A stretch of 63,998 nucleotides of DNA, the filler included, from Bonamia ostreae (taxonomy: Eukaryota), in assembly GCA_040357525.1 (NCBI GenBank). It is 4 parts of 4 records of this genome, joined end to end, with 100 filler letters (N's around TTAATTAATTAA, not from the genome) between each part and the next. Parts side by side here need not be neighbours in the genome. Positions count along the whole stretch, not along the records: positions 1 to 21,256 come from JBDODL010000001.1; positions 21,357 to 39,935 come from JBDODL010000003.1; positions 40,036 to 58,439 come from JBDODL010000004.1; positions 58,540 to 63,998 come from JBDODL010000193.1. The stretch is one strand, 5' to 3'. How positions within the stretch are numbered: the stretch's first letter is position 1; every line of letters begins with the position of its first letter. Both the position numbers and the translations under genes were made by a program. Shown in pieces: positions 144 through 59,259 of this stretch. The notes below the pieces were generated by a model. It was not told where the DNA came from. It ran no database searches and was given only the letters and a program-made list of their open reading frames with translations.

Positions 144-525
144 ATGGCAGAAGAAACGAAGGATATCGAAAAAAGCTTAAGTGAAAAAATAAAGCCGATC
201 GATCTTCGCGGGAAACCGGAAATCGAGAAGAAATATACAGATTATCTCAAATCAGGAACACTTTATGCCTTATTTCTCATCTGGTATTATTCATTGGGGA
301 TAGGAATGTCTGTAGCGATGTACGTCGCAGTGAAAAGCACAAAAAACGTCGGTTTGGTCATAATGTTTGCCGTTTTCTGTCTTTTCATTTTCTTCGTAGT
401 TTTCTTTATTGTTCATGGAATGCTCTATTCAAAGCCAAAAGAGTTAAAAATTGTCGTTGAGTTGAGGTTACAAAATATAAATTTTTAGTGAAGAAGAGTT
501 GGTCGAAAAGTCTTTGGCCATGTGA
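144..525 (+). CDS. Small hypothetical membrane protein (2 TM)
   Basis: ORF 144-488 has two hydrophobic stretches. A predicted 22-nt GT-AG intron (467-488) gives the C-terminus SEEELVEKSLAM*. Confidence 0.55.
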
Positions 526-731
526 AGTAAATTGCTTTCTAATATGTTAAATTAAGTTTATATCTTTCTTATTATATCTTCGATTTTGATCTACGATTTC
601 GAAATTATAAAATTAAGTAAATTTTAATCAACGAACGTTTTTCATTTTATACAAAATGTTGTTAAGTGGTAAAACATTAAGTTGCATTTTGTGACATAAA
701 GAAATTTTATCTTTACTTATATTTCTTTATT

Positions 732-779
732 CAGAGCTTCACCAACTCTTTTACGCCCGGGGTATCCAGAGCTTCACCA
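732..779. repeat. 13-bp direct repeat CAGAGCTTCACCA x2 with a 22-nt spacer
   Basis: Exact copies at 732-744 and 767-779. Confidence 0.8.
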
Positions 780-1075
780 GTTTTATCTACGAAAGATTAT
801 CATCTTTTTAGATTAATGCAAAACGTATTAGATAAAAAATTCCAAAATAAATAGATTTAGAATATTTTAGTTATTTTTGCTTGGAAAAGTGTAGCAGAAT
901 ATTGTAGATAGAGAAGGAAATACAATATAGTTCAAAAATTATTCTATTTGAGTGATATATTGCAGATATAGGAGCGCAGAAGGAAAAATAAATTTTCTTG
1001 AATCACATTGAAAAAAATTTTCTTTACAAATTACTGAAGAACTATTTTAAGCTTTGTCGATATAGATTATTTGAG

Positions 1076-1405
1076 ATGGCGAATGACAAAAAACGCAAAA
1101 GAAAATCAAAGAGGAAAAGAAAGAAAGAGAGAGAAAAAGAAGAAAAAGCCAAAAAAGTTATAGCGAAAATTGAGGTTATCGAACAAAGAGGCAACAATAA
1201 AGAATTGAGCGAATTAGAAAATGCGCTGAAAAAGCAAAACGAAATGATGAAAAAAATGGGGCTGCCCGTTTCATTTGAAAGTACAAAAGGAAAAGAAGTG
1301 CCGGAAGCGAACGCTTCTGCGGTCAGACTTCGGAGCAAAAGACGATATCGCCAGTACATGAACAATAAAGGCGGCTTCAATAGAAATCTCGCTCCTTCTT
1401 TTTAA
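1076..1405 (+). CDS. SNRNP27: U4/U6.U5 tri-snRNP 27 kDa protein (DUF1777)
   Basis: C-terminus MMKKMGLPVSFESTKGK...KRRYRQYMNNKGGFNRNL matches the family signature. First ATG is at 1076. Confidence 0.9.
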   Translation: MANDKKRKRKSKRKRKKEREKEEKAKKVIAKIEVIEQRGNNKELSELENALKKQNEMMKKMGLPVSFESTKGKEVPEANASAVRLRSKRRYRQYMNNKGGFNRNLAPSF

Positions 1406-1744
1406 ATAGATAAATATTCTGGAAATTTTACGCATTTTTAGTAGAAAAATATTCTCATACATTTTGTAAAAAAACTCGCCATTTTTTGTTAAATAATCCC
1501 CTCATTGCATTGAACTGACAAAAATAACTTTTTTAGAATAAATATAAAGGTTTGTCAAATCTCGCCATTTTGCATTTTTCTTTTGTGGGCAGAAAAAATG
1601 CTCAAATCTTTGCAATTTTGTGGTCNNNNNNNNNNAACCATTTCTAGATAAGATTTACAATTTTAGCATTTGTAGTTGAAGTTTCTATTAATTGGCAATA
1701 TTAAAGTCAAAATTTTTAGTAATGAAAATTAAATTGAGCGTTTA

Positions 1745-3258
1745 TTAGAATAAGCTGGCGAGCTTCGATACTTCATTCGGGTTCTTGTTGGACAGAACTT
1801 CCAATCGCTTAATTGTTTTAGTGTCAGAGTTCTGCAGAACTCCGACGTTCTGTAAATGTTCAGTCCATTTTTCGAACTCTTCTTTTGAGTAAGTTTCTGG
1901 TATTTGGAATGTTTCAGCCGAATCCGGGGGCGAGTAGTCTTTTTTCCGGTTGGAATTTGCAATGACCGTTAAGCCGTTCTTCAGACTATTGTCGTAAATA
2001 AATGGCGTGAATGCGTCCACTACAGAAAGTTGTTCGGCTTCAAGTTTTTTGAAATCTGGATCTCTGAACGTTGACATTCCAGTCCAGAAATCGACGTTGT
2101 CGATCGTCACGAGCACCTTCAAACTTTAGATGACTCAAAAAACTTTTCGCACTGACTAATTTCCTCCAAAAAATCGTATAGCAGCTCAGCTGGATTAACG
2201 CAACTGTTTCCGGCGCCGAAAGAGGCCATGTCGTAAAGAGAGTTGCTTGCTCCTCCGTTGAATCCTGTTTCTCGGTCCAAACTCAAATGTTCTTTAATGT
2301 TTTCTTTGAGCTTTTCGGCGGCCTTTTGGCGCTCTTTGTCTTCCGAAATTTCAGCTTTTAGACTTTTTTCTTGTTGTTCCACCATTTTTTCGTAATCTTC
2401 TGGGCTCAGTTCGGTCTCAGATTTCTCTTCGTCTTTGTTTTGGCTTTCGCTTTCTTCCTTTTCTTCTGGGACAAAGTTTGATTTGTACTCTTTTTTCAGA
2501 TTTTCCGTCTTCAGCTTTTCCGCTTGCGTGTGCAAAATGTCTCTGAAAAAAGTCCGGGCCACTTCGACTTGGTAGAATGTTTCTTCTCTTTCTTTGGCGC
2601 GCATAATTTGCCCGGAGTAATTGGAGATTTTCTCCGCGAACGGAAAGTTGATCCACAGCCAGTTGTGTTCCAATGCGAACATCCCCAAATAGTTCAACGA
2701 CAGCGACTTCCCGCTTCCTTTTGAACCAGACAAAAACACTGTTTTCGAATAGTTTCCGGCACTGCGCAATTTTTCCGACAAACTTAACATGTGCTCGCGG
2801 AGAAGAATCGCCGGGAAGCCGTTTCTAGCAAGAATTTCTTGAGTTAAATTGCAAAAACTTTCAATTTTGCCACCAAATTCGCCGGATATCATCTCTCGAT
2901 TGAACAAAAATACTTTCCCCGCGTCTGTCGAAGCGTGTTCGCTCTAAAACGTTTTGATGGAAACAGTTAAAATCGGAGCCAGTTTCTCTTTGTTTTCCGG
3001 GTTTTGTGTGTATGTATATAATCGAGAAGCGTCTTCAAACAGCTTTTCGATAAGTTCGGTATTCTTTGACAAAAACTTTTTCGGGAATCCGATTTTTCCG
3101 AGAAGATTTTTTCTTTCGATTAGTGCTTTATTGGCGATGGGGAAAATCCTGTTTGTCAATCTCGTTTCCGGCAATGATTTCGCCGACATCGATTTGGAAT
3201 TAAAAGTGATCAAGCTGTTGTTTAAAGCTCTGTTCCATTTTTTCTGACTGGCAAACAT
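1745..3258 (-). CDS. DAP3: Mitochondrial small-subunit ribosomal protein mS29/DAP3
   Basis: P-loop GSKGSGKS, FALEHNW, KVLVTIDNVD and the C-terminal LSNKNPNEV. Three ORF pieces join via 21-nt and 20-nt GT-AG introns. Confidence 0.8.
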
Positions 3259-3403
3259 AAAGGAACGCGATATAATTTCTGCTCAGAAATATATGAAGCA
3301 AAAGTAAATTTCGGATATTCTCCGTTCGTTATCGTAAATACAAACCTTATATTAAATCACAACAAACATAATAAATAATAAGCTTTAACAATAAATTTGC
3401 TAA

Positions 3404-4436
3404 ATGGCCGGCGGCGACAAAACGAATGTATTGTCCGAAATGAAATGCGAGAAAATGTTTGGGATCAAAGAAAAGGTTCTTGTCTACTTCAAAGGGGCAC
3501 TCTACGATGCACGGATTCTAAAAAAGAACGGAGACAAAAGATTTAAGGTCCATTATCTGGGTTGGAATAAGCGTTGGGATGAAAATGTGGACGTTTCAAG
3601 AATATTCCCATTTGAAAAAGAGTTCGAAGAGATTAGAGACAAAATTGAAAAAGGGCAGATCCCGTTACAAAAAGAAATCGGAATTGGCAGAACGAAAAAT
3701 AAAAAACTGGAGAAAAAATCTGCTTTTTCACACATAAACAGAGAAAGAAGAAGTAATGTGCTGTACAACAAAGAGGATAAAAAGATTTCGAATTTGAGCG
3801 AAGAAAAGAGGAAAACGACCATTGAAACACAGAAAAGCGAAATAACAGATGTCCTTAGACAAATGGACAGTAACAAAGATAAAAAACAAAATGTTGAAAA
3901 AAGAAAAAAACCAAATGGCGAAAGTCTGAAAAACTTTGGTCACCCAAGTCGCTCGCTTGCGTCCATAAAAAGTATCAGAGAAGCCCACATTACTTTCTCT
4001 CCGGTTTTTAGGCGGATAGTTGGAAGCGATTTTGTGCGCGCTGGCGAAAAGCAAGCTCCACACTTTCCCGCAAACGCTTTCACCGTTTCGTCTCTTTTGG
4101 AAAGAACGAATTTGAATAGAGAGCAAAAAAAAGAACTGGCAAATCTGTTCGACCAGTTAATGCCGGAAATGCTGCTTTTTGACTTTGAAAAAAAAATTTA
4201 CTTGAGAGAAGCAGCCGCACTGAATTTCAAGGCGAGCCAAGTTTACGGCGTGACGCACTTGTTTCGTCTCTTAGGTTTGCTTGTAATTCTTAGTGCTGAT
4301 ATCCACTTCTTTGTCGGCACTCTCTTCGACCGAGAAAATAGAGTTGATTTCCTTTCTTCGTAAAGTCGACAAAGAGCTCGTCGACGTATTGTGCTCAAGC
4401 GACGATTTCGAACTTTGTTATAGAGACATTAAATAA
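3404..4436 (+). CDS. MRG15/Eaf3-family chromodomain + MRG domain protein
   Basis: Chromo-barrel LYDARIL..FKVHYLGWNKRWDENV and MRG motif ASQVYGVTHLFRL. A 19-nt intron (4275-4293) restores HLFRLLV. Confidence 0.85.
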
Positions 4437-7194: not shown

Positions 7195-8535
7195 ACAGTT
7201 TATTGAAGATCAATAAAACAATTCTCTCGATCGATCATCAGTTAAAGTTTTGGCTTTAATAACATTTAAAACCATGATTTAGCAAAGAAGCGCAGCAGCA
7301 AAAACTTAAGCATGAAATAATAACGTTAATCGCTTTTCCAGATTGTAGAAATTCCGCCAAACTCCTAAAAGTCTCAATCACGGAATCTTGTAATGTCATA
7401 AACAAAACGAATGCATGTCATTTCTTTGTGGCCGTCAATTACAGAGGAGAGCTCACTTATGAAATATCTGTGATCAATAACTGAAGCGTTGTCTTTAAGT
7501 TGGGACAAACATATCATCAATGCATCACGATCACTTTCGATTAATAACTTGTGATCTCTGTTTGAAAAAATTTTGATGTTTTGGACAACATCTTTTACTA
7601 TTGCCAATCCCCGGTATTTTTTGTAGTATAAATGCGAGGATGGTTGGAATTTTCGGGTTTTAACTCTCTTGACTCCACATACCGCCAATTCGCTTTCCAC
7701 TAAGTCTTGTTCCTCTTGTCCGATCGTTTTCTGTTTTTTCTGAAGTGCTAATTTTGCCTCGTCGAAAATATCCTTTGCGTGCACAGAAAGTTGATGGGCG
7801 GCTTTGATGCTATTCAAATAAGCTTCACGAGACCCATCTGGCGTAAAAATACCATGTCGCGCTTCGAGTGCTACGACTAATTTGATAAAAATTAACCTGA
7901 GTTGCAAAGAATATCAATGACCACATTTTTGCTAATTAGCTCAAATTTTTCTTTGGATTTGCTGTTCGGGAAAAAATGAATTTTGGGAACATAAATGGCA
8001 CTTTGAGTATTAAGCATTTTCAGGAGATTGTTCAAGAAAATTGGTTTTGGGCCATTTTCTACAAACTGAACGATTGTGAAATTTGTGGATCCTCCCATTG
8101 TTTTAGATGCGCGCTGAAATGAGGACATTAATTTGTTTATAACGGAATCACTGATAGGCGAATTGCACAATTGAAGTGCTAATTAAATAATGGCAAAAAC
8201 TCAGTTTGTAGATTTTTTTATAAGTGGGAAACAGCTCTATCAGATCGCCTGATAATTTTCTAAGAGCATCATTAAAATCAAAAGGAGATTGATTTAAATT
8301 GACAAACGTATCGGGTTCTGTCCCTTTCATATTGGGTTCGAAAAGAAAAGTATTTAAATCCAAAAATAAAATTTCACGGTATTGCCCGTTATTGAAGAAA
8401 AAATCATGCAAATGTTTGAATATTCCGGGAATGTCGCATACTCTGTGACGGGATCGAATTTTGGCAACTTTAATATTATTTAAAACCCAATTCACATGAA
8501 TTTTTCATAGATTTTGTAACAAATTCGTTTTCCAT
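7195..8535 (-). CDS. Orphan tandem family, paralog A (3' end approximate)
   Basis: ORF pieces join through 19-, 22-, 20- and 22-nt GT-AG introns. N-terminal motif IR-x14-LHDFFFNNG. Confidence 0.65.
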
Positions 8536-8591
8536 TTTTCTCTGGTTTAGTCGATTTTTTAATTTTATTATATAATAAAACTTCCGGAATG

Positions 8592-8631
8592 CGGTCTAGT
8601 GGTTGATTTTTTTCTTGGGTTCAAATCCTAG
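8592..8631 (+). promoter_or_regulatory. tRNA-like Pol III A-box/B-box element lacking an anticodon arm
   Basis: CGGTCTAGTGG (A-box-like, 8592-8602) and GGTTCAAATCC (B-box, 8618-8628) within a T-arm-like hairpin TTGGG-TTCAAAT-CCTAG. Only 15 nt, including a T7 run, separate the boxes. Confidence 0.5.
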
Positions 8632-8899
8632 TGTCAGTGTTTATACAACCTCAGAAGGATCACGAAAAGGATAACTTGAAAGGATCATTTTATATTAATA
8701 CTCGAAAGGATTGCAAATACTGTTTTGTCCATTTTAGATAAATCGCCAGAAAAAATTAAAAAAATGTGGTACATTGCAGAAATTACTAAAAAATGTAAAA
8801 TTATGAAGAGAAAGAGACAAAAAAGTTAATAATATTTGACCAAAATTATATAATTATGATTTAATCAGTTAATAATTTAACAAACTGGAGTATCTCAAT

Positions 8900-10202
8900 A
8901 ATTCGTTTGCTTAATTTAATTTCTAATTAAACCTTTGACTTCTAAACTAAAGCATTGTCTCTCAGAACAATTATTTTCGGGTATTTTAGTCATCAAATCA
9001 TCATCCAAGATAACAACAAAATAAAAGAATATTTGTTGTGCATGGTCTTTTTGTACTTAAATAAAAAAACATATGCATGTTTTTCTCCGCAAGTCTTTGT
9101 ATTTTTCATGCAAAGTTTTAGCCAAACTTGGTAAATCAAAATTTTCTCTATCATCTTTTATAACCCTTAAATTTGTTCTTAGCAAGTCATTGTAGCTGAT
9201 TGGGATCGGTTGATGGTCAGATCTAAAGACAATTTCGATATCCTTTAACAGATTTTGAAGCTTCATGCCATTTTTTAGCGCTTTGTAATAGAAGGCATTT
9301 TCTACGGCTGCTTTAATAAATTGTTCAAAACAATGATTTGAGAGAGTTATCAACGACATTCTTAAACAACATTGCATAAGAGCTTTGAAATTTTTTAAAT
9401 ACAATTCGGCCAAGTAAACGGGCGGAGTCAAACGTTTTCTTTCAAAATTTTCGATCTGACTAGCTTAAAATTAGAATAAAAACACAAAGAAGAACAAAAC
9501 GTGTTGTTTATAGACAGCACTTTATAAATGTTATAAATAAAACAGTAATTCATAAGATTTGCGGATTGTTTTTCTTCGACTTCGTATAAAGTTGTGAATG
9601 GTAGATATTTAGCATTTTGGTTGTTCATGGCCATTTGCAAGGTATTGAAGACGACACTGAAAAAACAATCCTCCTTTAAGCACACGACTGTACAATCTGG
9701 AGCACGTCCTAGTGTTGCCGTTAGCTTAGAATATAATGCGAATAGTTCTTTTACTTTATTCAAAGAGTCGTTTCCTTTCAGAATGATTTCGATTTCTTAG
9801 AATTTTAAACAAAAACTTTTTTTGTAAATTTCACTTTCCAATTTAGAAGCTTCGATCAATTTTAATTTGTCTTGATCAATTAAAGAGTCCACTTTTCTGC
9901 TTTCTGGAGCAATTCCAGCAGACATTAGTCTTGCTATACCATGGCTGCTTGCTACAGGTTGTAGCTTCGGAAATTGTACTCTATTCGGGTGATTAAATAT
10001 CTCGTCCACGAAAACGACGAAACTAATAGATTTTAGATCTCCATTATTGATTAAGTAGTCGTGAAGAGCTCTCATCAGTTTTGGAAAATTTCCTTCGGCG
10101 TAAAATTTTCTTATGTCAAGCACTTTAATGTTTAACTTTCAAACGAATATGTTTTGTCAAACTCAATGAGCTGTCGTTAAAGGCTCTAACCTTTTGATGC
10201 AT
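8900..10202 (-). CDS. Orphan tandem family, paralog B (3' end approximate)
   Basis: ATG 10202, 22-nt intron 10123-10144, motif IR-x14-LHDYLINNG. Downstream ORFs 9797-10123, 9428-9763 and 9057-9431. Confidence 0.65.
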
Positions 10203-10429
10203 TCTAATTCTTTCAATTAAGCAATATAAAGTAAATATGATACAAGCCAACACTAATTTGTATTTGATAACTATTTACGTTTTATTTCGAGACTAATAAA
10301 TACTGTTCCACTTTATCGCAAAACATTGAAGAAATGATTTTTGAAATTTTATCGCAAATGTAAATCATTAAATCTAACAAACTCATTCGCAAATATATTT
10401 CGGCACATACAAAAATTTCAATAAAGGTT

Positions 10430-12430
10430 TATTCAAATCTCTCCACTTTCTGTTCTATTCGTTCTTTGTAGACAAGGCGAAGAATCTTCGTTTTCAAAGA
10501 TAAAGTTTATTGAAAGTTCTCTTAATAATTGAACCTGAAATTTTATCCAAATCAGAGGAAGATTTTGATACCTCTCGGCAAAATATTTGAATAATGTAGT
10601 TAGAACACCAAATGTATTTCTATTTTTGGTGGAACAGTCATTTTGATGCTTATGAGTTATTTAGTAGATGATTATCTAATTCCTTCTAATTTTTGGTTTA
10701 AATAATATTTGTTTATCCACGAAAATATTTGTATTTTAAGACAAAAAAGCATATTTTGAAAAACGGAAAATCTAACAGGGAAATTTTCCAACATGAGAAT
10801 TTGCTTTTTAATAACGAATTTATAAAAATAAGAAATAAAAATGTTTATTCGAGATTTAGTAATAAATCACATTTGCATTTTTTTGTATAATATCATAAAC
10901 TTTTTGATGAATAATTGTTAAAACTTATTGTGTTCAATTCGTTACAAATTTCGCAATTTTCTGTGCAAACGAAAGTACCAAGATGATAAAATTGTTTTCC
11001 GGATAAATATAATAAAAAATCGTTCAATTTTCTAATATTCGTTCCTATTTCTATTATTTTAAAAACTTTTACACTTGTCCAAGTATAAATTGTCATGCAA
11101 CATAAGAAAAGACTTTGAAGCTTCAGTGGCTCTTATACATTCCATGCACGCACTTAATCTCCAAAAACAGTTCTTCAACTCTTTCATAAAAGCTTCGGAA
11201 AAATATTCTTTTTCCTTGGAGTAGAATTCAGTACTTTTGATTAGATCGCTCAGGACAATATCAGCAATCTTTTTCTTTGTGTTAAATGCATACTCCTTTA
11301 TAAACAACGACAAATCGTTATTTTCAACTAATTCTAATACTCTGTGTACATAGTTTATTGTTTCCAAATCGACCTCACTGACCAATTTTGATGGTGAACG
11401 ATTTTCGTCTAGTTCCACATAAAAATCATCATAAGATAATTTTGTTAGATTTGATTGCAAAAATGCAATTAAATCTTTTACGATGTTTTTATGTTGCTCT
11501 TCGGTGGGTTTATGTGTTTCGAAAAATTTTACTACAGGTAACAATGCAAACTTTTATTTTTGAAAATATATTCTGTAAATTTTGCCACTTTAAATTTTGT
11601 TAAAAAACTTTCATTTTTAAGAAATTGATAGTTGTATGGATCAAAACCATAAATTTTGGGACAATAATAACATCTCCCATGATTTACGCTTTTCAAAACG
11701 CAATTGCTTACGTTAAAAAAAATACTTACTTCCGAAAACTTGATTAGAGTAAATTCCGGAGGACCGTTAAACAGTGTCTCTAACTCTTCAAACTCTTTTG
11801 CCAGATCTATAACATCATCGAATTTTTTTCCACGAATAATTTTGGTAACTTTGTATTATAATTATGAGCACCTCATGACAATATAGAACAAGTAACTGAT
11901 GATTCGCAAAAAAACGCAAAGCATTGTTATAAAACTTTTTTTTCTCATTCTATCATATTTATCCTTGTTTTTGACCAAAATCGGAATATTATCTCTGACA
12001 AATTTTTCTCTTTTTGCTTTTTCAACAGTGTCCTTTTCATTTTGGTATTTCTCATCTGAACTGTCATAACTTTTCTCTGGAACAGTAAAAGATTCAAATT
12101 CATCAACATATTCGAAAGACTCGTCTTCAGAAGAACTAATTTGGATTTGGATATCAGAAATTGGCGTTTTATTATATTCAGCCATAAATATGTTTTTAAT
12201 AAAGTTTATCTCGTCTTTAATCGACGAAAGTTCGCCTCCATTGTATAAAAAATCGTGTAAAAGCTTAAAAAGTGTATTCATATTCTTTTTGCGATATTGT
12301 TTTTTTATTTTTTTGGCTTTAATTTAAAATAATAACTTAAATTAGTGCAAATAGTAAAGTATTTTGATGCGAATCTATTAATCTCGTCAAATTCTGTTTT
12401 AACTATGCGAGTCCTTGTTTTGCTGGCCAT
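10430..12430 (-). CDS. Orphan tandem family, paralog C (3' end approximate)
   Basis: ATG 12430, 20-nt intron 12317-12336, motif IK-x14-LHDFLYNGG. Downstream ORFs 11862-12281, 11059-11544 and 10893-11096. Confidence 0.6.
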
Positions 12431-41760: not shown

Positions 41761-41793
41761 CAAATTAAAAAAAATGATAAAAAAACATTTCAA

Positions 41794-45360: not shown

Positions 45361-45829
45361 AATATTGCGGATTTTTATTTTTTGTTAATTTGTTTTGTGA
45401 CTTTGTAAAATTTTCTGCTTTGTTTTGTGATGAACAATCAGATAACAAACGCTTTGTAATTTGATGTTGTCTATTCGTTTTTCTGCATTCGATTGCGATT
45501 TTCGATTCATTTAAACAGCTTTCTTTATTTTCGGATTTTTACAGTTTGCTGAAATATGGGCTAGATCATCGTTATAATCAACAAGATCATTTTTAATCAA
45601 CCGAGACAAATTTTGCCATATTATTAAAATGGGTTCGTTCTAGATAAGTTTAAACCACATTTTTAATTAATAATTTAATCAAATCTCTCCTCTTCACATT
45701 TTTGAATTTTGATGATAGATTTTAATATTCTAATAATTGCAGATTTGATTTTTCTTGATTTTTGATTTCCGATTTTTAAACTAAAACGATAAATTAACGA
45801 TTAATAAATTAAAATGGACAAATTTAAAA

Positions 45830-46793
45830 TATTTAATCGTTATATTGGTTTGGCTTTACAATAAGGATTAAACTAAGAGGTTTCCAGAAATGCCATAATA
45901 ACGAAATTAGAAGACAGGAATATAAAATCTGTTCGAAAATCCATGGCCATCTATTCAAAAAATCAAAACTTTCATTTGTTAAGTTTTTGTTGTATTCATA
46001 CTTTTGAAATTTTAATTTTTAAAAAATATTTGTTTTTGTAAAAATAAAAACTGTTAGAAAGAAAACAACAAAGATGTAGTAAACAAGAACGTTTGAATGA
46101 AAGATATAAACAAAAACACGAAATTTTTTAAATCGTTTTTTTAGTTCCAAACTACTCATTTTTGACAAAATTTTTTCTGTCATAAAAATAAAAAGAACTC
46201 CAATAATCAATTCCGTAGATCCCAACACTCCATAGTAAATATAAGCGGAATATCTTTTTTTTATTTTTACAAAATCTTATCCAAATTATTTCTCAATAAA
46301 TTTAATGTTCAGAAATTTTACAAAATTTAAAATTTTATAAAAAGTACAATTTTTCCCTGCTATCCCCATAAACAATTGAAGTGAATAACAGAACGATTGC
46401 AGCTATAAAAAGTCCGAAAAGAAAAAAATATAAAATTTTTGTATTGATTTTGACGGCTTTGTTAACAGTCTGAATCATCACAACAAACAACGCCATATGT
46501 GACGCCATAAAAAATATGTTGCTCGTCGCATTGAAAATTATGACCCGATTATTTGGAATCGACACAATCAAATCGTATACGAAAAACCAAGAAGCAAAAG
46601 TTATCATTGAAGATATCAAACCACAAATTTGTACAATTGTTTGGACTTTAAATGTTTGGAAAAAATACACGTTGCTGTTTTTACAGCGAACGATGTTTTG
46701 TAACAAAAACATGTAGCCAATAGTAAAAAATAAAGTTAGAAATATCGATGTTATCATTATGTACATTGGATCTATTTGTTCCAAATTTGACAT
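45830..46793 (-). CDS. Seven-transmembrane protein, possibly GPR107/TMEM87 (LUSTR)-like
   Basis: About seven hydrophobic segments over three exons; the last reads RWPWIFEQILYSCLLISLLWHFWKP. Confidence 0.5.
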
Positions 46794-47124
46794 TTTTGAT
46801 TATTTTGTTTTTTAAATATTTTCTTTTTGTTGCTTGCATGTTTCAAAAAGAGGATTTTAATTTAAATGTTAAATTTGTTAAGAAAAATTATTCGGTTAAA
46901 TTTAGAATATGTTTAATATGGGATAATTTTCGAGTTAAAATTTTTTTAATTTCAAAATTAAAAACAACCAAAATTTAATTTTTATTCGAGAAAATAAAAG
47001 GTCATTGGCGATTCGCAATACAATTGTAAATTGGAAAATATAAAATTTCAGTAACAAAGCAATATTATGAGATAACCATTTTCAATACAACATAACAAAA
47101 AAGCTGTAACAAAAACTCCGCAAA

Positions 47125-48364
47125 ATGGATGTACATAACAAAAACGACGCGATTGCAGATAAAGACAATTCGAATAAATTAAGTTTTACAGAACGTTTCG
47201 ACAAAGCGAATAAAGAAAACCGCCTTCAAATCGTCAAAGAACATTTTCTGAACAGAATAAAGAAGATGGTCAACGACACCAGTTTATCCGTTTGCAACAA
47301 ATTTAACAACAAAGGAAAAAATCGCGATGATATTTTCTCGTTTGGATGTAAAGATGCTAAAAACAATTGAAGAAACAAGAAGATTTGAGCAATGTGTGTA
47401 CCAAATTAAAAAGGAAATCAAAGAAGCAGAAAAACGCCATAAAACGACAAAGAATCTGTTGAACAAATACAAACACCAAAAAACAAAACCGATAAATTTT
47501 CGTGAAAACAAATTTGCCAAAAAACAAGAACGTGCTTCAGAAAATTTGAGCAAATCAATGTCACAATTAAAAATTTCGAACAAAGACGTTCCGACTTTCA
47601 AAAACACATTGAAAAGCAATTTGTCGAAAAGTTTTCAAATTTCAAAAACCGAAATCACAAACCAGAAGATCAAACCTCATTCTAAAACTTCTTTTGAAGA
47701 ACCCGAAAACAAATACTTAAAGATAACTGATATCGGCAGAGAAGCCAGCGCGAAAACGATCGCTTTGTATTTTGATCGCTCTTCAGAACAAAACAAGATA
47801 GTTTGGGTCGCTGTATTCACTTCCCGGAACGGCATTTTAAGCACTGTCATTAACTTTGCCGACACCGAGTTTGCACAAACGGCATTTTTGTACTCGAAAA
47901 CGCATCTGTTGATAGGAAGAACGATGAGAGCCAAATTTTTGTCTAATTTTGAGATTTCGTTGTTGTTCCAAAACAAAGTTTTAAGTGTGTATTTGAACAG
48001 CAAATTTTCCGAACTGGATTGGAGAAAAGACTTTGAGAACTGTAGGGCTATCAATATTGACAACAAGCAAAATTTGACTTTTCAAAACTTTAACAAACAG
48101 AGTTTGAATGCTTGTGAAGACGCTGATAGAAGAGAGTTTGCAGCGAAAAATGAAAATTCAAATTGGTTTTCCGGGGGATTTTCGCATAGCAAAGACAATG
48201 GAAGAAACTTTTGTTGTCAAGAAAGCGGTCTATACAGACCAAAGACGTTTGTCGATTCAAATATTCAGTTGGCACCGGAAATTCAATGGACGGCTGAGAT
48301 TGTGAACAGGAAGATAAATGAGGGGATTTGCAAGATTGTGAGTGAGCAATTAACAGTTTTGTAG
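47125..48364 (+). CDS. Hypothetical coiled-coil + RRM-like protein
   Basis: Two ORFs join through a GT-AG intron. RRM-like segment YLKITDIG...TVINFADTEFAQTAF...GRTMRAKF. Confidence 0.55.
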
Positions 48365-48586
48365 ATTGAAATATTTATTTTTTATGCAACTAACGAAAAA
48401 GGAGAATGTGAAGAGACGGTTGATGAGCGAATACAGTTTTGATCAGTTGTACGAATACAGTCAGAAGAATTTGATTGGAAATCTGATTATCAAAACTGTG
48501 GAAGACATAATAACAAGTAAAGCGATGTAATCTTCGTTGTTGTGTACTTTGCAGTAAAAATTTTCACAATAAAAACGCCTTATGCC

Positions 48587-48700
48587 TTTGAATGTCTGTG
48601 ATACCGGGTGCAATCCGAAGGGTAGGTGGTTTTGTCGGTAGGCAAAATATTAAACATCGACACCGAGTCCGACATGCGCTGGGGTCCCCACACGCAGAAT
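48587..48700. ncRNA. Conserved structured element, copy 2
   Basis: Same three conserved blocks as 41651-41727, with extra hairpins in the variable parts. Confidence 0.45.
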
Positions 48701-48815
48701 AAAAAATTCCTAAGAGAAGCGGCAAAACATAAAATTTGTTCTAAAGGATAATTAAAATTTTCATTTCCAAAAATCAAAAATCCTCAAAATATCGAAAAGC
48801 CTTTCAAACATAAAA

Positions 48816-51081
48816 ATGAATTTTAATTTTTACAAGGAAAAAAACGACATTTTTACCAAAGGTAAAATTCTTCAATTCGTCCAGAAGAGAAAATATTTTT
48901 CGGATTCTAAAGAATTTGTAGATACTGTTTTTCACAAATGAATATCAAATTATCAAAATTTAATACAGCAATAACATTTAAACACAATTAACAGAAAATA
49001 AAATTATCACAATCAAAAACCAAATTGGTCGAAAAATAATTTCAAAACAAGTTCATGACAGCGCCATCAAAAACAATAATAAAAGAATTTGAAGAACTTG
49101 ACAAAAATAACAAATTGGATTGTAAAAATTTTGTAAGTTCGAATTTTGTGACATCAAAATTAGAAAAAATCCCATTTATCCCAGAATATTCTGAAAAACT
49201 GCCTCAAAATTACAAAAAACGTTTTAAAAATGTTGATTTTGTAAAATTTGCCGAAGAAATTCATTCAAAATGGCCAAGTTTGATTAAGAAACTGCCAAAA
49301 TATGTTCTAACTTATCCTGATCGAACTAGTTATATCCCTTCTAAACATAATTTTTTGGTCATTCCGGGTGGTCGCTTTAAAGAATATTATTGTTTTTAAT
49401 TTTCATTCAAATGTTTCATTGTAACGATATTAATTCAGTTACAATTCTTATACAAAAATTTAGATTGGGATACATATTGGATATTGTTGGGATTTTATAG
49501 ATCTGGAATGTACCAATCAGCAAAAAAAGTTATAGAAAACTTATTATATTTTGTCAAAAAGTTCGGATTCGTTCCAAACGGTAACAGAACATATTATCTA
49601 AATAGGTCTGATATTAAAGTACAACAAATAATAAAATTGATAGCGGTAAAATAATAACATCTTAAAAGGTCTCAACCACCATTTTTGACATTCATGGTCG
49701 ATAAATATTACAGAAAAACAAACGACGTTCGATTTCTTTCAGAGGCCTTGCCACTTTTAAAAAAAGAATATTCGTTTTGGATGAAGAAGGGAAATCGCGC
49801 GATAAAAATCGAGCACAATGGAAAGCAATATTTTTTGAATAGATATTTTGCCGATGAAGACAGAATTCGTCCTGAAAGTTGGCGTATTGTTTTTAATAAC
49901 AAGTAATTTATTTTGTACATATTATTTTCGGTAACAGTGCATAAACACGGAAACAATAAAAAGGACAAGTTAATATCATCGAAAATGCAAAACTTTGAAG
50001 AGAAAAAACGTTTTTATAGAAATATAACTGCGGCGACAGAGTCGGGATGGGACTTTTCATCTCGTTGGACTGGGATAAATTTTGATTTGAGTGGTATCAA
50101 AACGACCGATATCCTTCCGGCTGATCTCAATGCTTATCTGGTCGGAGTCGAAAGAATTTTGTTTTCTTATTGCAAATTATTGGGCGATCGGCAAATTTTA
50201 AAATTTAAAAAGGTTTTGCAAATTTGAATAAAAAATTTTCAAATTGTGTTTTTGCCAACTGATTTTTTTAATTGAAGAGATACAAGCAACGATTAAAAGC
50301 AATGTATGAAGTGTTTTTCGATAACGAGAGAAATCAATGGTTGGACTATGATTTCAAGAAAAGAGAGAAAAGGTATCACTGTCCCTCTGTTTCCAATTTT
50401 ATTCCTCTCTGGACAAGAGCTTATGAAACAGAAGGCAAACGCGGTATTGATGTTGACAAAGTTTATTGGCGTCAATAAAAACAATGAACATGAAAAGTCA
50501 TGTTTACAATAAAAAGATAGCAGAAGAATTGCAGAAAAGCCATTTGGGGAATGCTGAAGTGCCGTTGGCGGTAACAAGTTGTGTTTCAATGCAACAATGG
50601 GATTATCCTAATGCCTGGAGTCCTGTCACTGTTTATTATACCTTTTTGAGGCTATTATTATTGTGTAGGCGCAACATTGATCGGCATTTTTAATGACAAC
50701 AAAAACTGCATTTAAATAATTTTAACAAAAATAATTTCAATGTCATAAACTCGAAAATATAATTTAAAAATTAACTTGTGACAATGAAGCACATGATAGT
50801 TGAAGGTTTGGAAAAAGCTGGTACTCGAAAAACGAGAAGAATGGCTAGAGAAATCGCTGTAAAATGGATTAAAGCCAATTTTTATTTGTTTAAGAAAACC
50901 GGGTTTTGACAAAAAACAAAAAAGAAAAATATTCGAAAGAATTAACGCGTTAGCAGATTTAGAACATGACGAAATGGGGGAATATGCTGTACAAGTTTCA
51001 AAAATTTATTCACAGTTTGGATTTGGATGGACCAATGGGGTTTTGTTGGAATTGATGTATAGATACGCCATTTATCTTTAA
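48816..51081 (+). CDS. Trehalase (GH37), multi-exon, no obvious signal peptide
   Basis: DSKEFVD, PGGRFKEYYYWD, FVPNGNRTYYLNRSQPP, RPES, ESGWDFSSRW, QQWDYPNAW, GEYAVQFGFGWTNG. Confidence 0.93.
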
Positions 51082-51389
51082 ATATCTTACATTTTTTTAA
51101 TTACAAAAAAATTGCTGCTGATCAAAATTATTTTGAGATCTAAACCAATTTTCTTATGTTTTTGAAGTCCCAAAATCGAAAAAAACTTAAATAATTTTCA
51201 ACTTTTTACAAATTTTATTAGAAATTCAAAAATGTGGTGACAATTTTTTCAGTTAAAATTTTTCAGTTTTACGAAATAAAAATTTTTCAGTTAAAATTCA
51301 AAACGACAAATCTTCAAGAAAAACGTAAAAATTTTAAAAATGTGTAAATTTGGTGGATAAAAATTTTGGTGATTTGAAAAATTGACAGA

Positions 51390-51785
51390 TCATTTATTTT
51401 TAATGTGTTTCTTTATAATTTCGGAGCGCTTCTTCTGCGCTATCATAACTTTAAATCTGTCAAAATCGTTCATTTTTTCTCTTCGCTGCATTCTATCAAT
51501 TTTTTTAAAAGCTGCTGACTTTTGGAATTTCTCGACTATTTTATCGTTTTTAGAGATTTTGTCGATATCAGAAGACGAGGACGTTTGGGTGATGTCCATT
51601 TCCAAAGGCAATATTTCGAGTGATTTGAGGATGACTGAATGTCTTTTTATTTTATTTTGAATTCCTTCTACAACGGCTTTTGTCGTGTCGACGATATCGA
51701 CGATAACGACTAATTTCCCAAAATTGGTTTCGCGGTTGATGAAACAAACTCTTCCGATTTTAAAGGTGTAATCTAAGCGGCCCAT
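51390..51785 (-). CDS. RPL14: 60S ribosomal protein L14 (eL14)
   Basis: IGRVCFI..GKLVVIVDIVD...RREKMNDFDRFKVM. Confidence 0.92.
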   Translation of the reverse strand: MGRLDYTFKIGRVCFINRETNFGKLVVIVDIVDTTKAVVEGIQNKIKRHSVILKSLEILPLEMDITQTSSSSDIDKISKNDKIVEKFQKSAAFKKIDRMQRREKMNDFDRFKVMIAQKKRSEIIKKHIKNK

Positions 51786-53012: not shown

Positions 53013-54408
53013 CTAATTCGGAAAAAATAGATAATTTTCTACAAATGATTTGGAAATCGTCTTTTCAGTGTTTTTGTACCAATTCAACAATTCGCTATCT
53101 TCCAAAACGCGCTTAAAATCGTCCAAATCTGTGAACATTCTTATTGCACCAAATAAGCTCAAATCAACTAAATTAGGTTGGAAATCCATTTTGTTTCGGA
53201 CTTTATCGATTTTGTTTATTTTTTCATTATATTTATTCAGTTCCTTTATCAAATCTTCGTATGGATTCTTTAAAATAATAATTTTGTCAAATTTTAATCG
53301 AAGTGCATTTTTATTGTTTTAAGATTTTTGCCAATGAAAATCAAATCTCGCCATTTTACATTTCGGTTTAATGGTCGATGCTTCGTTTNNNNNNNNNNNN
53401 NNNNNNNNNNNNNNNNNNNNNNNNNNNNNNNNNNNNNNNNNNNNNNNNNNNNNNNNNNNNNNNNNNNNNNNNNNNNNNNNNNNNNNNNGAAAATCAAATC
53501 TCGCCATTTTACATTTCGGTTTAATGGTCGATGCTTCGTTTTCGAAGATTTGTCATTTTTTATTTTAACATGAAAATCAAATCTCGCCATTTTACATTTC
53601 GGTTTAATGGTCGATGCTTCGTTTTCTATGATTTGTCATTTTTTATTTTAATCGATTTAAAGCAATTTTTAGTCGCCGTCAGTTTTAAAAAAATTAACAG
53701 TGATATTATGATTTTTTTTTATTTTTTGGTAGAGCTCTTTCATTTTATTTACGTGATCAATATTTTTAATGCGAATCAAAAATCGTTTCAAAAAATTATT
53801 CGACGTCATTTCGTTCAAATAAGAAAAAGCTTCATTCGTGCTTTGTCTCGAGCGACACAAATAACAAAGCAAGTAAGGCATTATTTTTTCGTCAATCCAA
53901 TTTTGCGTTTCTCTGACACCTTCAGAAGTCCAGTTTTCTTAAATCGGTAAAAGAACAAACCGTAAATATCTCTGTTGATCAGTTTGTAGTTCAAAGCTTC
54001 GTCCAACAAAAAATCTATTATCACATTTGATTCTCCGATTGCGATTTTGTGTCTATCGGATTTTATTCTAAGCACTGGAACTGTCGCAAAACTACTCCAA
54101 TCTAGCATTTTTTTGCTTCTTGGATCAACTTCCAACAAAGTGTACCATAGTCCAAGCCTATCTAACAACGCTCTTATTTTGCCGGAATAAGGGCATCTTT
54201 TGAATTGGTACAAAAATAAAGCCCCGAAATAATTATTGGTGTTACAATTTTTTTCTAAAAGGAGTCCTGAAATGTCGTGTTGTCTATGGAAGGAATCTGG
54301 ACTTAAAGTGGGCGGTACAAAAGTTTTTTCGAGGGGCTTTTTGGCCCCCGATTTTGCATTTGTTTTTAATGAGATTTTAAATTTTTCTAGTTTCGTTAAA
54401 AGCTTCAT
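53013..54408 (-). CDS. PTGES2: Prostaglandin E synthase 2-like (glutaredoxin + GST-C); 3' end approximate
   Basis: LYQFKRCPYSGKIRALLD..LEVDP..VPVL and QPNLVDLSLFGAIR..LLNWY. Confidence 0.8.
53327..53650. repeat. Intronic tandem repeat (~70-bp unit) spanning an assembly gap
   Basis: At least three copies of GAAAATCAAATCTCGCCATTTTACATTTCGGTTTAATGGTCGATGCTTCGTTT. Confidence 0.9.
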
Positions 54409-56352: not shown

Positions 56353-57447
56353 TCATTTGTCAAACCATCCATTTTCCTCCATTAAAACCAATTCTTTATA
56401 AACCCCATTTTCGTCATTTGTCCATTTTGAAATTTTAGAGCACTTTTTTTAATCAAAAAACTAGTTTTTTTGTTTTTTCTGAACCGTTCTTCATGCAAAT
56501 GCCATATCCAACAAAATTTAAAAATTCTGCGTCGTTGTTGCCGTCACCAATTCCGACTGTTTTATCAACGTCTTTGTTTTAATTTAAAGTTTACCGATTT
56601 TTAGATGTTTAAGCAAACTGCAAAGCCCTGTTGCTTTATTGGTATTAGCACATAAAAATTCAATAAAAAAATTTCCCAAAATAATGTGCACTTCTGTACC
56701 AAATGTATTTTTCGCTTTTTCGTAAATTGAATCCACTTTATTCGTTGGAACCATTATTGCCAATTTTGGTGCTTTTTTGCATCTTTTTTGTTTTTATAAT
56801 ATTCAGACTTTTCTGAAATAAGAAAATGATATCAAATAAAAAATTCACTTAAATTCGTTGTAGTTTTCAATGTATTGATAGTTTGCAGAACAAAGTTTTA
56901 TATATTTCACAATAAGCTCTTTTTGCTTGTTATCTTTGCAAATACTGTAAACTACCGAATCTGTATAAAAATTGACAGAATATCCCAATTTTTCGGCAAA
57001 ATTGAAAATTTTATTTGTCATTTCGCCTTCTAAAAACTGTTTGTATATTATTGTTCGCTCTCTTTCTTTATCTCTTCATTAAAAATTAAAATATTGTAAA
57101 ATTGTTACTGTGTGCAAAATTTGTAAAAACAGTTTTGAATACGCTAAAGCGCCATTAAACGTAACCAAAGAACAATTTACGCCAATTTTCTCAATAATCG
57201 GGAAGACGCAACTCGGCATTCGCCCAGTACAAATTATTATTTCAACGCCCATTTTGTCCAGTTTTCTTAAAATCTGTTTACTGTCTTCTGATATTTTTTT
57301 CTCGGTTTCGCCGTTTATTGGACTTTTCAGCAGTGTTCTTTGTGTTTTATAAAAAATGTAACAAAATTTCGTTTTGTTAATTTTTACAAATTTTATTTAA
57401 AACCCGTCCAAATCAATAGCAATTGAATGAATTGAGCGAGTAGACAT
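56353..57447 (-). CDS. Cof-type HAD-IIB hydrolase, multi-exon
   Basis: IAIDLDG-TLL, ICTGR, TFNGA, GIGDGNNDAEFL..GICMKNG, WTNDENGV. Includes a 19-nt intron (56443-56461). Largely missed by the ORF track. Confidence 0.88.
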
Positions 57448-57719
57448 TTTTATCCGTTTTATTTAAAGATTCGATAAAAATTACCAGAATTTCAAAATTT
57501 ATCGATTTTTGCTAAATTTAGACTGTTTTTTGCTAAATTTAGACTGTTTTTTGCTCATTTTATTTATAAATTAAAGAAATGTAAAAGCAATTTTATTATA
57601 AAAATGATTTAGCGTTGAAAACATTTTAAATTGAAAAACGACCGTGTTTTTAATGTTCAAAAACTATATTTTTATCAAAATGTTTTGTTAGAAAAAATAA
57701 AAGCAATTCACTTATCACA

Positions 57720-58076
57720 TTAATACTGTTCCTCCATTACACGCATTACAAGTCTTAAAAGAATTGTGAAATTTTCCAAAACGCCATTTTCCCCGTAATT
57801 TGGAAACAATTTTATCATTGCTTTATGGAACGAAGTTATAAAATCTTCGAAGATGTCTATTTTCAGACCTGGCATCCATTCTTCATGACGACTTCCTGTT
57901 TGGATCAATTTTTGTTTCAAAACTTCCCAATTTTTCAAATTAGAAATTGTGAATTGGATCGAGCTAACCAACAGATCGTGTTGTTTTAAAGGGTCTTCAC
58001 CGTTTATACAAGATTGGAACGAGTTGTAGTATTTTTTGTTTTTTTCTATTAATCTGTTAAATATGGCCATTCCGAG
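57720..58076 (-). CDS. Globin-domain protein, 3' exon (5' part lost at contig end)
   Basis: LGMAIFNRLIE..YYNSF (B/C/CD1), KQH (E helix), GSRH (proximal His F8), plus G/H helix pattern. Confidence 0.7.
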   Translation of the reverse strand, partial: LGMAIFNRLIEKNKKYYNSFQSCINGEDPLKQHDLLVSSIQFTISNLKNWEVLKQKLIQTGSRHEEWMPGLKIDIFEDFITSFHKAMIKLFPNYGENGVLENFTILLRLVMRVMEEQY

Positions 58077-58094
58077 CTATATTTATAAATTTTA

Positions 58095-58439
58095 TAATTT
58101 TCATTTTTACAGCGATTTTCAGAAAAGCAAAAGTTAACAAAATTTTTGTTTTATTTTCAATTTTCGTTTTTACAGCGATTTTCAGAAAAGCAAAAGTTAA
58201 CAAAATTTTTGTTTTATTTTCNNNNNNNNNNNNNNNNNNNNNNNNNNNNNNNNNNNNNNNNNNNNNNNNNNNNNNNNNNNNNNNNNNNNNNNNNNNNNNN
58301 NNNNNNNNNNNNNNNNNNNNNAATTTTCGTTTTTACAGCGATTTTCAGAAATGCAAAAGTTAACAAAATTTTTATTTTATTTTCAATTTTCATTTTTACA
58401 GCGATTTTCAGAAAAGCAAAAGTTAACAAAATTTTTGTT
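58095..58439. repeat. Tandem repeat (~63-bp unit) in the globin intron
   Basis: At least four copies of AATTTTCRTTTTTACAGCGATTTTCAGAAAAGCAAAAGTTAACAAAATTTTT. Confidence 0.9.
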
Positions 58440-58539
58440 NNNNNNNNNNNNNNNNNNNNNNNNNNNNNNNNNNNNNNNNNNNNTTAATTAATTAANNNNN
58501 NNNNNNNNNNNNNNNNNNNNNNNNNNNNNNNNNNNNNNN
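58440..58539. other. Artificial contig linker
   Basis: TTAATTAATTAA at 58484-58495 within Ns. Confidence 0.95.
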
Positions 58540-58830
58540 TTTGAATAAAAAGAATTTTAAAAATAAAATTTTCGAATTAATAAAAAATTTAAAAACAAAA
58601 ATTCTCGAGTAAATAAAAAATTTGATAAAAAAGAATTTCAAAAACAATAAATATCGAATAAAAAGAATTTTAGAAACAAAATTTTCGAGTAAATAAAAAA
58701 TTTGAAAAACAATAAATATCGAATAAAAAGAATTTTTAAACAAAATTTTCGAATAAATAAAAAATTTGAAAAACTAAAAATAACTTGAAAAACAAAATTT
58801 TAAAGAATCTAAAAATTTGAAAAAATGTAC

Positions 58831-59259
58831 TGATGGAATACAATATTCTATTGTACTGTAATTTTGCTGTAATTCTGGCGGCATATTTTGTTGAGAAATC
58901 GCGTTATAACTTATCGGAAAATGATTTCGCATAAAGCAAAACGGGCACACCCAAATTTTGTTTGTAAAGTCGACTTGACTATTTAGTCTTTTAATCCAAA
59001 CCAATACGAATTCAGAATTCCAGAGCAATGTCCCCCTTTGCAAAAAACGGGATGTCCATTTACTTTGCCCAGTCCTGTGACGTTTTTCAGGGGCGTGTAC
59101 TAAATGATTTTAGAAAATCGAATAAACAAGGCATCCGATGGGAATCACCAGCTTTGCCGCATCGGCTTTTGTTTCTAATATAACATAAAAATTTAAACTT
59201 GGCCAGATGTTCCAGGACATTCTAATACCGTCTTTAGCTTCTACTTTTTCAAACTCCAT
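58831..59259 (-). CDS. SEC23: COPII coat protein Sec23, 5' part (truncated by contig end)
   Basis: DGIRMSWNIWP, PIGCLYTPLK, zinc finger C..C.GILNSYCQVD..WVCPFC..RNHFP, TIEY. Introns of 24, 28 and 23 nt. Confidence 0.93.

Follow-up and report, generated by a model that had tools for sequence, protein, structure and literature searches.

Introns with a T-rich 5′ splice site in conserved genes of the oyster parasite Bonamia ostreae

The window and its genes

Bonamia ostreae is a haplosporidian (Haplosporida, Ascetosporea, Rhizaria), an oyster parasite and a regulated pathogen. The stretch of its DNA analysed here, referred to below as the window, is 63,998 nucleotides long and consists of four parts of the genome assembly GCA_040357525.1 joined end to end. 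Its genes are interrupted by what are very likely genuine nuclear spliceosomal introns, almost all of them GT-AG, with a splice-site consensus that is specific to the lineage. The 5′ splice site reads (A)(G)/GTTTT and the 3′ splice site reads (A>T>>C)AG, never GAG, where here and below a slash marks the splice junction.

The GC content of the window is approximately 31% overall and 24–44% when taken in 4-kb steps. There are twelve runs of N, and the reading frames fit the standard code well. All 433 stop-to-stop open reading frames (ORFs) of at least 50 amino acids were scanned against Pfam, and an additional scan of the 194 short ORFs of 20–49 amino acids provided only two useful anchors. The genes identified are nuclear genes of ordinary type, each spread across several ORFs: DAP3, an MRG15-like gene, TFIIIC, TrmB, two protein kinases, a BIG1/Sec7 exchange factor, SAR1 (through the Arf profile), SDHB, a NIF phosphatase, RPL7, trehalase, RPL14, a Cof-type HAD hydrolase, Sec23, HSF and SNRNP27. 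The last of these lies as follows.

992-1402, plus strand: SNRNP27, the 27K protein of the U4/U6.U5 tri-snRNP (snRNP, small nuclear ribonucleoprotein), Pfam E 5e-21

B. ostreae has thus retained at least one peripheral spliceosome protein.

Several proteins were compared with known sequences in order to place the organism: RPL7 proved too conserved, RPL14 had no close relative, and an ORF of 428 amino acids had no match within the length range covered. A comparison of the Sec7 ORF with protein representatives identified one protein at 98% identity, whose cluster is named at NCBI as 'Brefeldin A-inhibited guanine nucleotide-exchange protein 1 [Bonamia ostreae]' (BIG1) and has three variants. 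Variant 2 (MES1917982.1, 1534 amino acids) falls on positions 30583-37442 of the plus strand in 26 exact blocks, which account for residues 1-1532 apart from split codons. Comparison with annotated B. ostreae proteins covers the BIG1 gene only.

Assignment of introns

Purely computational ways of calling introns were tried and rejected. A scan for boundary pairs that join open frames failed to set GT-AG apart from seven other dinucleotide combinations, and in a junction-zone test GT-AG ranked 101st and 67th among 256 dinucleotide pairs. Decoy boundary pairs gave intron counts similar to those for GT-AG, and a codon-usage Viterbi finder misparsed SDHB, as did a forced-path version of it. Such calling fails because any shifted boundary pair also restores the frame, and homology anchors were therefore used.

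The resulting set comprises 53 introns, 25 taken from the annotated BIG1 protein and 28 placed in conserved genes by continuity with Pfam profiles or PDB chains; the latter were divided into 21 that are well anchored (class A) and seven that are ambiguous (class B). At each of the 25 BIG1 joins, exactly one GT-AG solution reproduces the protein, and at 11 of these it is the sole solution of any kind. Pfam continuity was run on 20 joins, and the best candidate had an excess of 0 at 13 of them (TrmB, kinase B2, HUS, two in SAR1, two in NIF, five in trehalase, and HAD3); elsewhere, the best candidate reached an excess of -1 for kinase B1 and of +1 for the fifth join in trehalase. This procedure gave no usable solution for kinase A, DCB, RPL7, whose two ORFs match different Pfam families, or for joining the sixth trehalase ORF directly to the last, a case settled by a short intervening exon. 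A 16-nucleotide (nt) candidate at the seventh trehalase join had an excess of 0 and was nevertheless overruled, because it removes 15 residues aligned by Pfam. The introns are as follows, with "excess" referring to Pfam continuity.

2124-2143, minus strand: DAP3 intron, 20 nt, GTTTTT..TAAAG; joins two DAP3 Pfam ORFs by frame restoration only, with no residue-level anchor; donor ambiguous (29-nt alternative)
2944-2964, minus strand: DAP3 intron, 21 nt, GTTTCC..TTTAG; the only short GT-AG spanning a single in-frame stop between two adjacent ORFs, with no homology anchor
4275-4293, plus strand: MRG15-like intron, 19 nt, GTTTGC..CTTAG; the frame is restored; the Pfam MRG match stops at the donor, as does a weak PDB alignment; the downstream exon alone has no match
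22669-22720, minus strand: TrmB/METTL1-like intron, 52 nt, GTTTCA..AAAAG; Pfam Methyltransf_4, excess 0, best of 11 candidates
29090-29115, minus strand: protein kinase B intron, 26 nt, GTAAAT..CGTAG; Pfam Pkinase continues from 163 to 164, excess 0, restoring ..T/APE..
29308-29329, minus strand: protein kinase B intron, 22 nt, GTTGAA..TTAAG; excess -1, best of 45 candidates, ambiguous
30706-30727, 30899-31076, 31273-31351, 31508-31612, 31789-31867, 32084-32161 and 32335-32488, plus strand: BIG1 introns, from the annotated protein
32762-32875, 33111-33221, 33448-33602 (N gap inside), 33921-34172, 34425-34497 and 34637-34692, plus strand: BIG1 introns, from the annotated protein
34826-34933, 35042-35091, 35248-35322, 35401-35421, 35527-35609 and 35757-35926, plus strand: BIG1 introns, from the annotated protein
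36140-36191, 36704-36830, 36902-36930, 37047-37093, 37193-37213 and 37314-37338, plus strand: BIG1 introns, from the annotated protein
39218-39302, minus strand: SAR1 intron, 85 nt, GTTTCC..AAAAG; Pfam Arf, excess 0, restoring ..CIL/GNKVD..
39451-39517, minus strand: SAR1 intron, 67 nt, GC-AG (GCATTT..ATCAG); excess 0; the only non-GT donor among the 53, there being no GT on the minus strand in 39545-39451 (95 nt)
39628-39648, minus strand: SAR1 intron, 21 nt, GTTTTC..TTAAG; a 7-residue insertion relative to human SAR1A in the read-through ORF; a multiple of three with no in-frame stop
42264-42290, minus strand: SDHB intron 3, 27 nt, GTAAAA..AATAG; exon 4 starts at residue 104 of the pig SDHB chain; the 21 residues of exon 3, which has no match when searched alone, stand against 22 positions of the chain
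42354-42379, minus strand: SDHB intron 2, 26 nt, GTTTTC..AAAAG; exon 2 ends at residue 81 of the pig SDHB chain
42452-42477, minus strand: SDHB intron 1, 26 nt, GTTCTT..TTTAG; in 1zoy_B, exon 1 ends at 57 and exon 2 starts at 58
43919-44065, plus strand: NIF/CTD-phosphatase-like intron, 147 nt, GTTGAA..AAAAG; Pfam NIF, excess 0
44165-44186, plus strand: NIF intron, 22 nt, GTTTTT..AGAAG; excess 0, ambiguous; the alternative is 19 nt, ends in CAG and has excess +1
44803-44906, plus strand: RPL7 intron, 104 nt, GTTTTC..AAAAG; restores ..IRIRG/IN.., a motif (IRIRGIN) that is unbroken in 104 of 120 retrieved RPL7 relatives
49392-49463 (72 nt), 49606-49668 (63 nt) and 49889-49963 (75 nt), plus strand: trehalase introns 1-3; Pfam Trehalase, excess 0
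50213-50277 (65 nt), plus strand: trehalase intron 4; ambiguous, the GT-AG form having excess -1 and a GC-AG alternative (62 nt) excess 0
50461-50516 (56 nt), plus strand: trehalase intron 5; ambiguous, with a second 56-nt alternative
50631-50789 (159 nt), plus strand: trehalase intron 6; Pfam Trehalase, excess 0
50903-50924 (22 nt), plus strand: trehalase intron 7; preserves every Pfam-aligned residue of both ORFs
56443-56461, minus strand: Cof-type HAD intron, 19 nt, GTTTTT..AAAAG; the only GT-AG join of two ORFs; the upstream exon aligns to 202-237 of the Hydrolase_3 profile
56572-56594, minus strand: HAD intron, 23 nt, GTAAAC..CAAAG; Pfam Hydrolase_3, excess 0
57338-57403, minus strand: HAD intron, 66 nt, GTTTTA..CAAAG; the only GT-AG pair yielding ..DLDG/TLLK.., which we take to be HAD motif I
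58979-59001, minus strand: Sec23 intron, 23 nt, GTTTGG..AATAG; on yeast Sec23, exon 3 ends at 67 and the next ORF runs from 70, the third residue after the join, with a split codon and one residue filling 68-69
59100-59127, minus strand: Sec23 intron, 28 nt, GTTTAT..TTTAG; yeast Sec23 positions continue from 35 to 36
59175-59198, minus strand: Sec23 intron, 24 nt, GTTTAA..ATTAG; an 8-residue insertion relative to human Sec23A; a multiple of three with no in-frame stop

Two further introns, in genes of unknown family, are placed by frame restoration only and stand outside the 53.

8468-8486, minus strand: 19 nt, GTTTTA..TAAAG; 36 open codons upstream and 105 downstream, with read-through stopping after 3 codons
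12317-12336, minus strand: 20 nt, GTTATT..TAAAG; 43 and 150 open codons on either side, with read-through stopping after 10 codons

A first-pass annotation, made by reading the sequence alone, had offered eight introns as examples, and all eight begin with GT and end with AG on their own strand. Homology supports six of them (the three in SDHB, 39628-39648, 56443-56461 and 4275-4293, the last weakly). For the remaining two, 8468-8486 and 12317-12336, the frame is restored but there is no homology anchor.

The 5′ splice site

The 53 introns comprise 52 with GT-AG ends and one with GC-AG. Position +3 is T in 46 introns, A in five, C in two and never G; the T-rich donor described in the first-pass annotation therefore stands, at a proportion higher than the two-thirds given there. 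T is also found at +4 in 41 of 53. At +5 the counts are T 33, A 13, C 4 and G 3, so that G is indeed as rare here as had been noted. GTTT begins 37 of the 53 introns, compared to 23% expected (p 8e-13), and the commonest pentamer, GTTTT, begins 27. On the exon side, A occupies -2 in 30/53, and G occupies -1 in 21/53 compared to an exon background of 15% (p 1e-5).

These donors do not follow GTRAGT, the consensus that is complementary to U1: there is a purine at +3 in only five introns and G at +5 in only three. Nor are they of the minor type. U12-type (minor) introns have the donor /RTATCCTT and the branch site TCCTTAAC, and none of the 53 begins with GTATCC or ATATCC.

The preference for T at +3 is found in each subset of the introns. 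It holds when the annotation-based introns are left out (16/21 in class A, p 0.006; 23/28 in classes A and B together, p 1.3e-4), and is seen in 23 of the 25 BIG1 introns. By length class, it is present in 18/21 of the short introns and 28/32 of the long ones. Within the BIG1 pre-mRNA, GTTTT occurs at 36 sites, of which 16 are used and 20 are not, while GTAA occurs at 21 sites, none of which is used. A comparison of GTT and GTA at used and unused sites in this pre-mRNA gives a Fisher p of 0.013.

The 3′ splice site and intron interior

Position -3 is A in 33 introns, T in 15, C in five and never G; the first-pass description had roughly half of introns ending in AAG and very few in CAG. Only 20 of 53 have a pyrimidine at this position. 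The oddity of the acceptor is that the usual pyrimidine preference is absent and G is excluded; the excess of A fits the local A-richness of the 3′ halves of the introns. The pyrimidine fraction from -17 to -3 is 0.46–0.50, which is not above that of the interior. A polypyrimidine tract is thus absent, and the 53 introns show no clear branch motif, both as previously described. Between -9 and -6 there is a weak enrichment of A, with a fraction of 0.53–0.66, and G is nearly absent. In the tails (last 25 nt) of the long introns, TATAA occurs in 7/31, compared to 0.9% of interior windows, and ACTAA in 3/31. We regard these enrichments as leads only: TATAA could be a signal of the branch region or could merely reflect AT palindromes.

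The interiors of the introns are 83% A+T, compared to 70% in the BIG1 exons, and it might be argued that the machinery is canonical and that the logo reflects composition only, positions +3 to +6 and -3 being unconstrained in such AT-rich introns. Composition does account for a good deal. The window contains 5334 GT dinucleotides, of which 46.8% have T as the next base, and 5369 AG dinucleotides, of which 43.5% have A in front. The 5′ site carries approximately 6.6 bits of information and the 3′ site approximately 5.9 bits, of which only approximately 1.9 and 1.2 bits, respectively, lie beyond GT and AG. At the donor, however, T at +3 and +4 is above every background tried (p 1e-9 to 3e-5), with p 1.4e-9 for the +3 excess over the GT dinucleotides of the window. 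Taken together, +3 T and GTTT exceed their frequencies in the GT context, in intron interiors (T 0.41) and in 5′ halves (T 0.45), with p from 1e-9 to 8e-13. The scarcity of purines at +3 and the complete avoidance of the GTAA sites in BIG1 also argue against composition, and we consider this explanation unlikely. Background A+T, which had been named in advance as a possible explanation of the logo, thus fails to account for the donor at +3 and +4 and largely accounts for AAG at the acceptor. We conclude that the shift in donor consensus is real and goes beyond the AT-rich background.

The information in the splice sites is too small to define introns alone, and other cues must therefore help. 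Pairing between the two intron ends (GUUUU with AAAAG) was considered and rejected, as it shows no covariation in excess of composition: the longest end stem is 4.33, compared to 4.41 when the 3′ ends are permuted among introns, a value as high as that observed being obtained in 750 of 1000 permutations. For the micro-introns the mean minimum free energy is -0.31 (z -0.06). For the long introns (at least 47 nt) the mean folding z-score is -0.91 relative to mononucleotide shuffles.

Intron lengths and density

Length could be measured for 52 introns. The introns fall into two classes: 21 are 19–29 nt long, and the others comprise one of 47 nt, 18 of 50–100 nt and 12 of more than 100 nt, with a maximum of 252 nt and a median of 56 nt overall. 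Short and long classes have the same ends. The initial impression that introns here are mostly 19–28 nt long was not borne out, given that 31 of 52 are 47–252 nt long.

It had also been suggested that introns might be defined mainly by length. This could take the form of a fixed short length, of the kind found in mikrocytids, in heterotrich ciliates and in the chlorarachniophyte nucleomorph. The 19–29 nt band, with only one intron at 30–49 nt, would be compatible with this. However, the majority of introns are long and have the same ends, and the short class itself contains 11 different lengths, spread evenly modulo 3 (6, 8 and 7). In a fixed-length system (mikrocytids, Stentor, the chlorarachniophyte nucleomorph) all or nearly all lengths would be expected inside a range of 2–4 nt, whereas in Bonamia they range from 19 to 252 nt. 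Definition by fixed length is thus very improbable.

B. ostreae appears to be intron-dense: there are 25 introns in the 4596 nt of BIG1 coding sequence, three in SDHB, at least seven in trehalase and three in the first 0.4 kb of Sec23. The 2024 B. ostreae genome paper gives 2 introns per mRNA, an assembly N50 of 1.4 kb and a mean coding length of 658 bp; the figure of 2 introns per mRNA may be an underestimate.

Are the interruptions introns?

A further possibility is that the short interruptions are not RNA introns at all, but assembly errors, pseudogene lesions or DNA segments that are removed from the genome. No RNA read was seen at the joins, and retention of the 21-nt SAR1 intron or the 24-nt Sec23 intron would keep the frame open, both of which leave room for this view. 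On the other hand, all 53 interruptions have GT or GC and AG exactly where the spacing of the homologue is restored, and they are found in housekeeping genes (SDHB, SAR1, Sec23, RPL7). The public annotation, which splices the BIG1 introns, was produced using funannotate, trained and updated with published transcript reads according to the 2024 genome paper. Moreover, sequencing runs marked 'DNA?' contain up to 96% of sampled words from positions 41500-51400. It is extremely improbable that the short interruptions are anything other than introns.

Several observations nevertheless weigh against the view that these are spliceosomal introns with a lineage-specific consensus, and have to be set beside it. 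The annotation of BIG1 is transcript-informed, yet it imposes splice rules: it permits mainly GT-AG and its donor model was learned from the same organism, so that the GT-AG ends of the BIG1 introns, and part of the GTT bias, could have been built in. In SDHB, SAR1 and Sec23, by comparison, the ends follow from the spacing of the homologues. Among the 28 homology joins, seven are ambiguous. The MRG15-like intron was placed in class A but its anchor proved weak on later checks; other class A choices were based on what we take to be HAD motif I (DxDGTLL) and, at one trehalase join (Tre5), on presumed similarity to human trehalase. Among the sequencing runs that match 41500-51400, none is recorded as RNA and one small run is merely guessed to be RNA. 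At -3, the rise of A over background is slight (p 0.003–0.01). Finally, T follows 72 of the 145 unused exonic GT dinucleotides in BIG1. GTT is thus common at unused sites too, and the donor motif alone cannot define the introns.

Recognition of the 5′ splice site

The splicing machinery of B. ostreae probably reads the starts of introns in an unusual way; the first-pass annotation had put forward an altered U1/U6 as one possibility. The 5′ end of canonical U1 is ACUUACCU. On the textbook scheme of U1 and U6 pairing, as restated by Roy and Bowser (bioRxiv 10.1101/2022.06.08.495308), GUUUUU would pair with the canonical U1 5′ end (ACUUAC) at +1, +2 and +6 only, besides the exonic A-2 and G-1. 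It would fit the ACAGA box of U6 better, with a mismatch at +5 only. A poor fit to U1 together with a better fit to U6 points to a 5′ site that would be chosen either by a changed U1, or mainly by U6, U5 and Prp8. In the first case, the 5′ end of U1 would have turned A-rich, as in Entamoeba. In the second, the donor would be picked mostly by U6, U5 and Prp8, with composition and the exon side contributing. One of these two is probably correct. Further help probably comes from the higher A+T of the introns and from what remains of exonic A-2 and G-1, while length would not be the defining signal.

We suggest, as a tentative proposal about which we remain somewhat doubtful, that in B. ostreae, and perhaps in haplosporidians generally, recognition of the 5′ site has been re-tuned, such that an A-rich U1 pairs with GUUUU or pairing with U1 has been abandoned. 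Scans of the window against Rfam, using gathering thresholds and E-values, identified no small nuclear RNA (snRNA) genes, giving only a tRNA and chance-level small nucleolar RNA and U11 matches. The U11-like match is weak (E 1.3) and lies antisense within the BIG1 locus. The tRNA is the sole RNA gene found:

43372-43444, minus strand: tRNA-Arg(ACG), between the SDHB and NIF phosphatase genes

Comparison with known systems

In the open full-text literature we found no account of intron lengths or splice motifs for Bonamia or any other haplosporidian, although single-gene reports are possible in subscription journals or supplements. The 2024 genome paper refers to B. ostreae introns as 'canonical'.

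Compared to canonical U2-type introns, those described here share GT (52/53) or GC (one) and AG, the exclusion of G at -3 and a residue of the exonic A-2/G-1 preference. They differ in lacking a preference for purines at +3, for G at +5 and for pyrimidines at -3, and also in lacking a polypyrimidine tract and a branch consensus that can be recognised.

In mechanism, the closest precedent is Entamoeba, which has GUUUGU(U) donors and a co-evolved U1 (ACAAAC) (Roy and Bowser, bioRxiv 10.1101/2022.06.08.495308). Both are parasitic protists with AT-rich introns that have U at +3 and +4 (46/53 and 41/53 here), and in both the donor would pair better with U6 ACAGA than with canonical U1. There are clear differences. 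Entamoeba keeps +5 G (97–98% GUUUGN) and its donor is strict (88–90% GUUUGU), whereas in Bonamia +5 G is found in only 3/53 and the donor is loose, with GTTTT in 27/53. Entamoeba is intron-poor, while BIG1 of Bonamia alone has 25 introns. The two belong to unrelated lineages, Entamoeba being an amoebozoan and Bonamia a rhizarian.

The closest relatives with comparable introns are the mikrocytids (Mikrocytos and Paramikrocytos), which also belong to the class Ascetosporea and also have very short introns. In mikrocytids the introns are all 16–17 nt long, number 224 in the genome and are near-identical in sequence, while those of Bonamia are 19–252 nt long, dense and loose in sequence. The only snRNAs reported as found in mikrocytids are U2, U4 and U6 (PMC10245619), a hint that the group recognises 5′ sites in an unusual way. 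Both of the options proposed above for U1 would fit its not having been found there.

Myxobolid myxozoans and Dicyema have many introns of 19–29 nt, with reduced logos and no polypyrimidine tract (Hadjez et al., Mol Biol Evol 2026, PMC13644364), and Bonamia resembles them in all three respects. These are however animals, with a donor reported as 'GTa' and a median intron length of 22–27 nt, while Bonamia has A at +3 in only 5/53, a median of 56 nt and two length classes.

A donor consensus that lacks both a purine at +3/+4 and G at +5 is rare, and is known from Entamoeba, where U1 has changed too. A T-rich donor in an unrelated, intron-dense rhizarian offers a direct test of snRNA/splice-site co-evolution across thousands of introns. 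If U1 is indeed A-rich in B. ostreae, this would be a second independent case of such co-evolution after that in Archamoebae, now in an intron-rich genome, an outcome not predicted by the model of co-evolution in which few introns come first. The donor shift in Bonamia may also illuminate the origin of the 16–17 nt introns of mikrocytids.

There is in addition a practical aspect. By default, common read aligners and gene finders set the minimum intron length at about 20 nt and model the donor as GTRAG, and with such defaults tiny introns with T-rich donors would be missed and reading frames broken. The published gene set of B. ostreae is fragmented; in the window, a single gene has 25 introns, and introns of 19–22 nt are numerous.

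Other features of the window

A 13-mer, AAATTTAGCCAAA, occurs 11 times in the window when up to one mismatch is permitted, compared to 1.0 expected. It is found at 31510, 33192, 35056 and 36278-36386, and at seven more places. It was considered as an intron motif and rejected: it is present in three BIG1 introns but also within a coding repeat (NLAKNNDQ units).

The remaining features are as follows.

7374-12323, minus strand: ORFs with the motif ..LHD(F/Y)(L/F).N(N/G)G.. three times, near 8150-8500, 9800-10140 and 11865-12320, and no Pfam match
15700-20700: block of approximately 43% GC, compared to 24–37% elsewhere, with long ORFs open in several frames on both strands
23538-27093, both strands: at least four small membrane proteins, paralogous and clustered, none with a Pfam match
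53294-53635 and 58061-58540: tandem repeats flanking N gaps, with repeated ORF text on each side

The ORFs in 7374-12323 are either tandem paralogues or a single large repetitive gene, and the region includes the introns at 8468-8486 and 12317-12336. The GC-rich block contains a C-terminal TFIIIC-like part (DUF6581 match) and two ORFs of 240 and 410 amino acids with no Pfam match. Each of the paralogues in 23538-27093 has a hydrophobic stretch at the N terminus, a transmembrane segment and a Cys-containing domain common to all; ...Y(E/K)ES(V/F)LV stands near the C terminus in at least two, and one contains a PPxY-like motif. The N gaps at 53294-53635 and 58061-58540 are probably repeats that the assembly did not resolve, and near them are low-complexity reading frames rich in phenylalanine and leucine.

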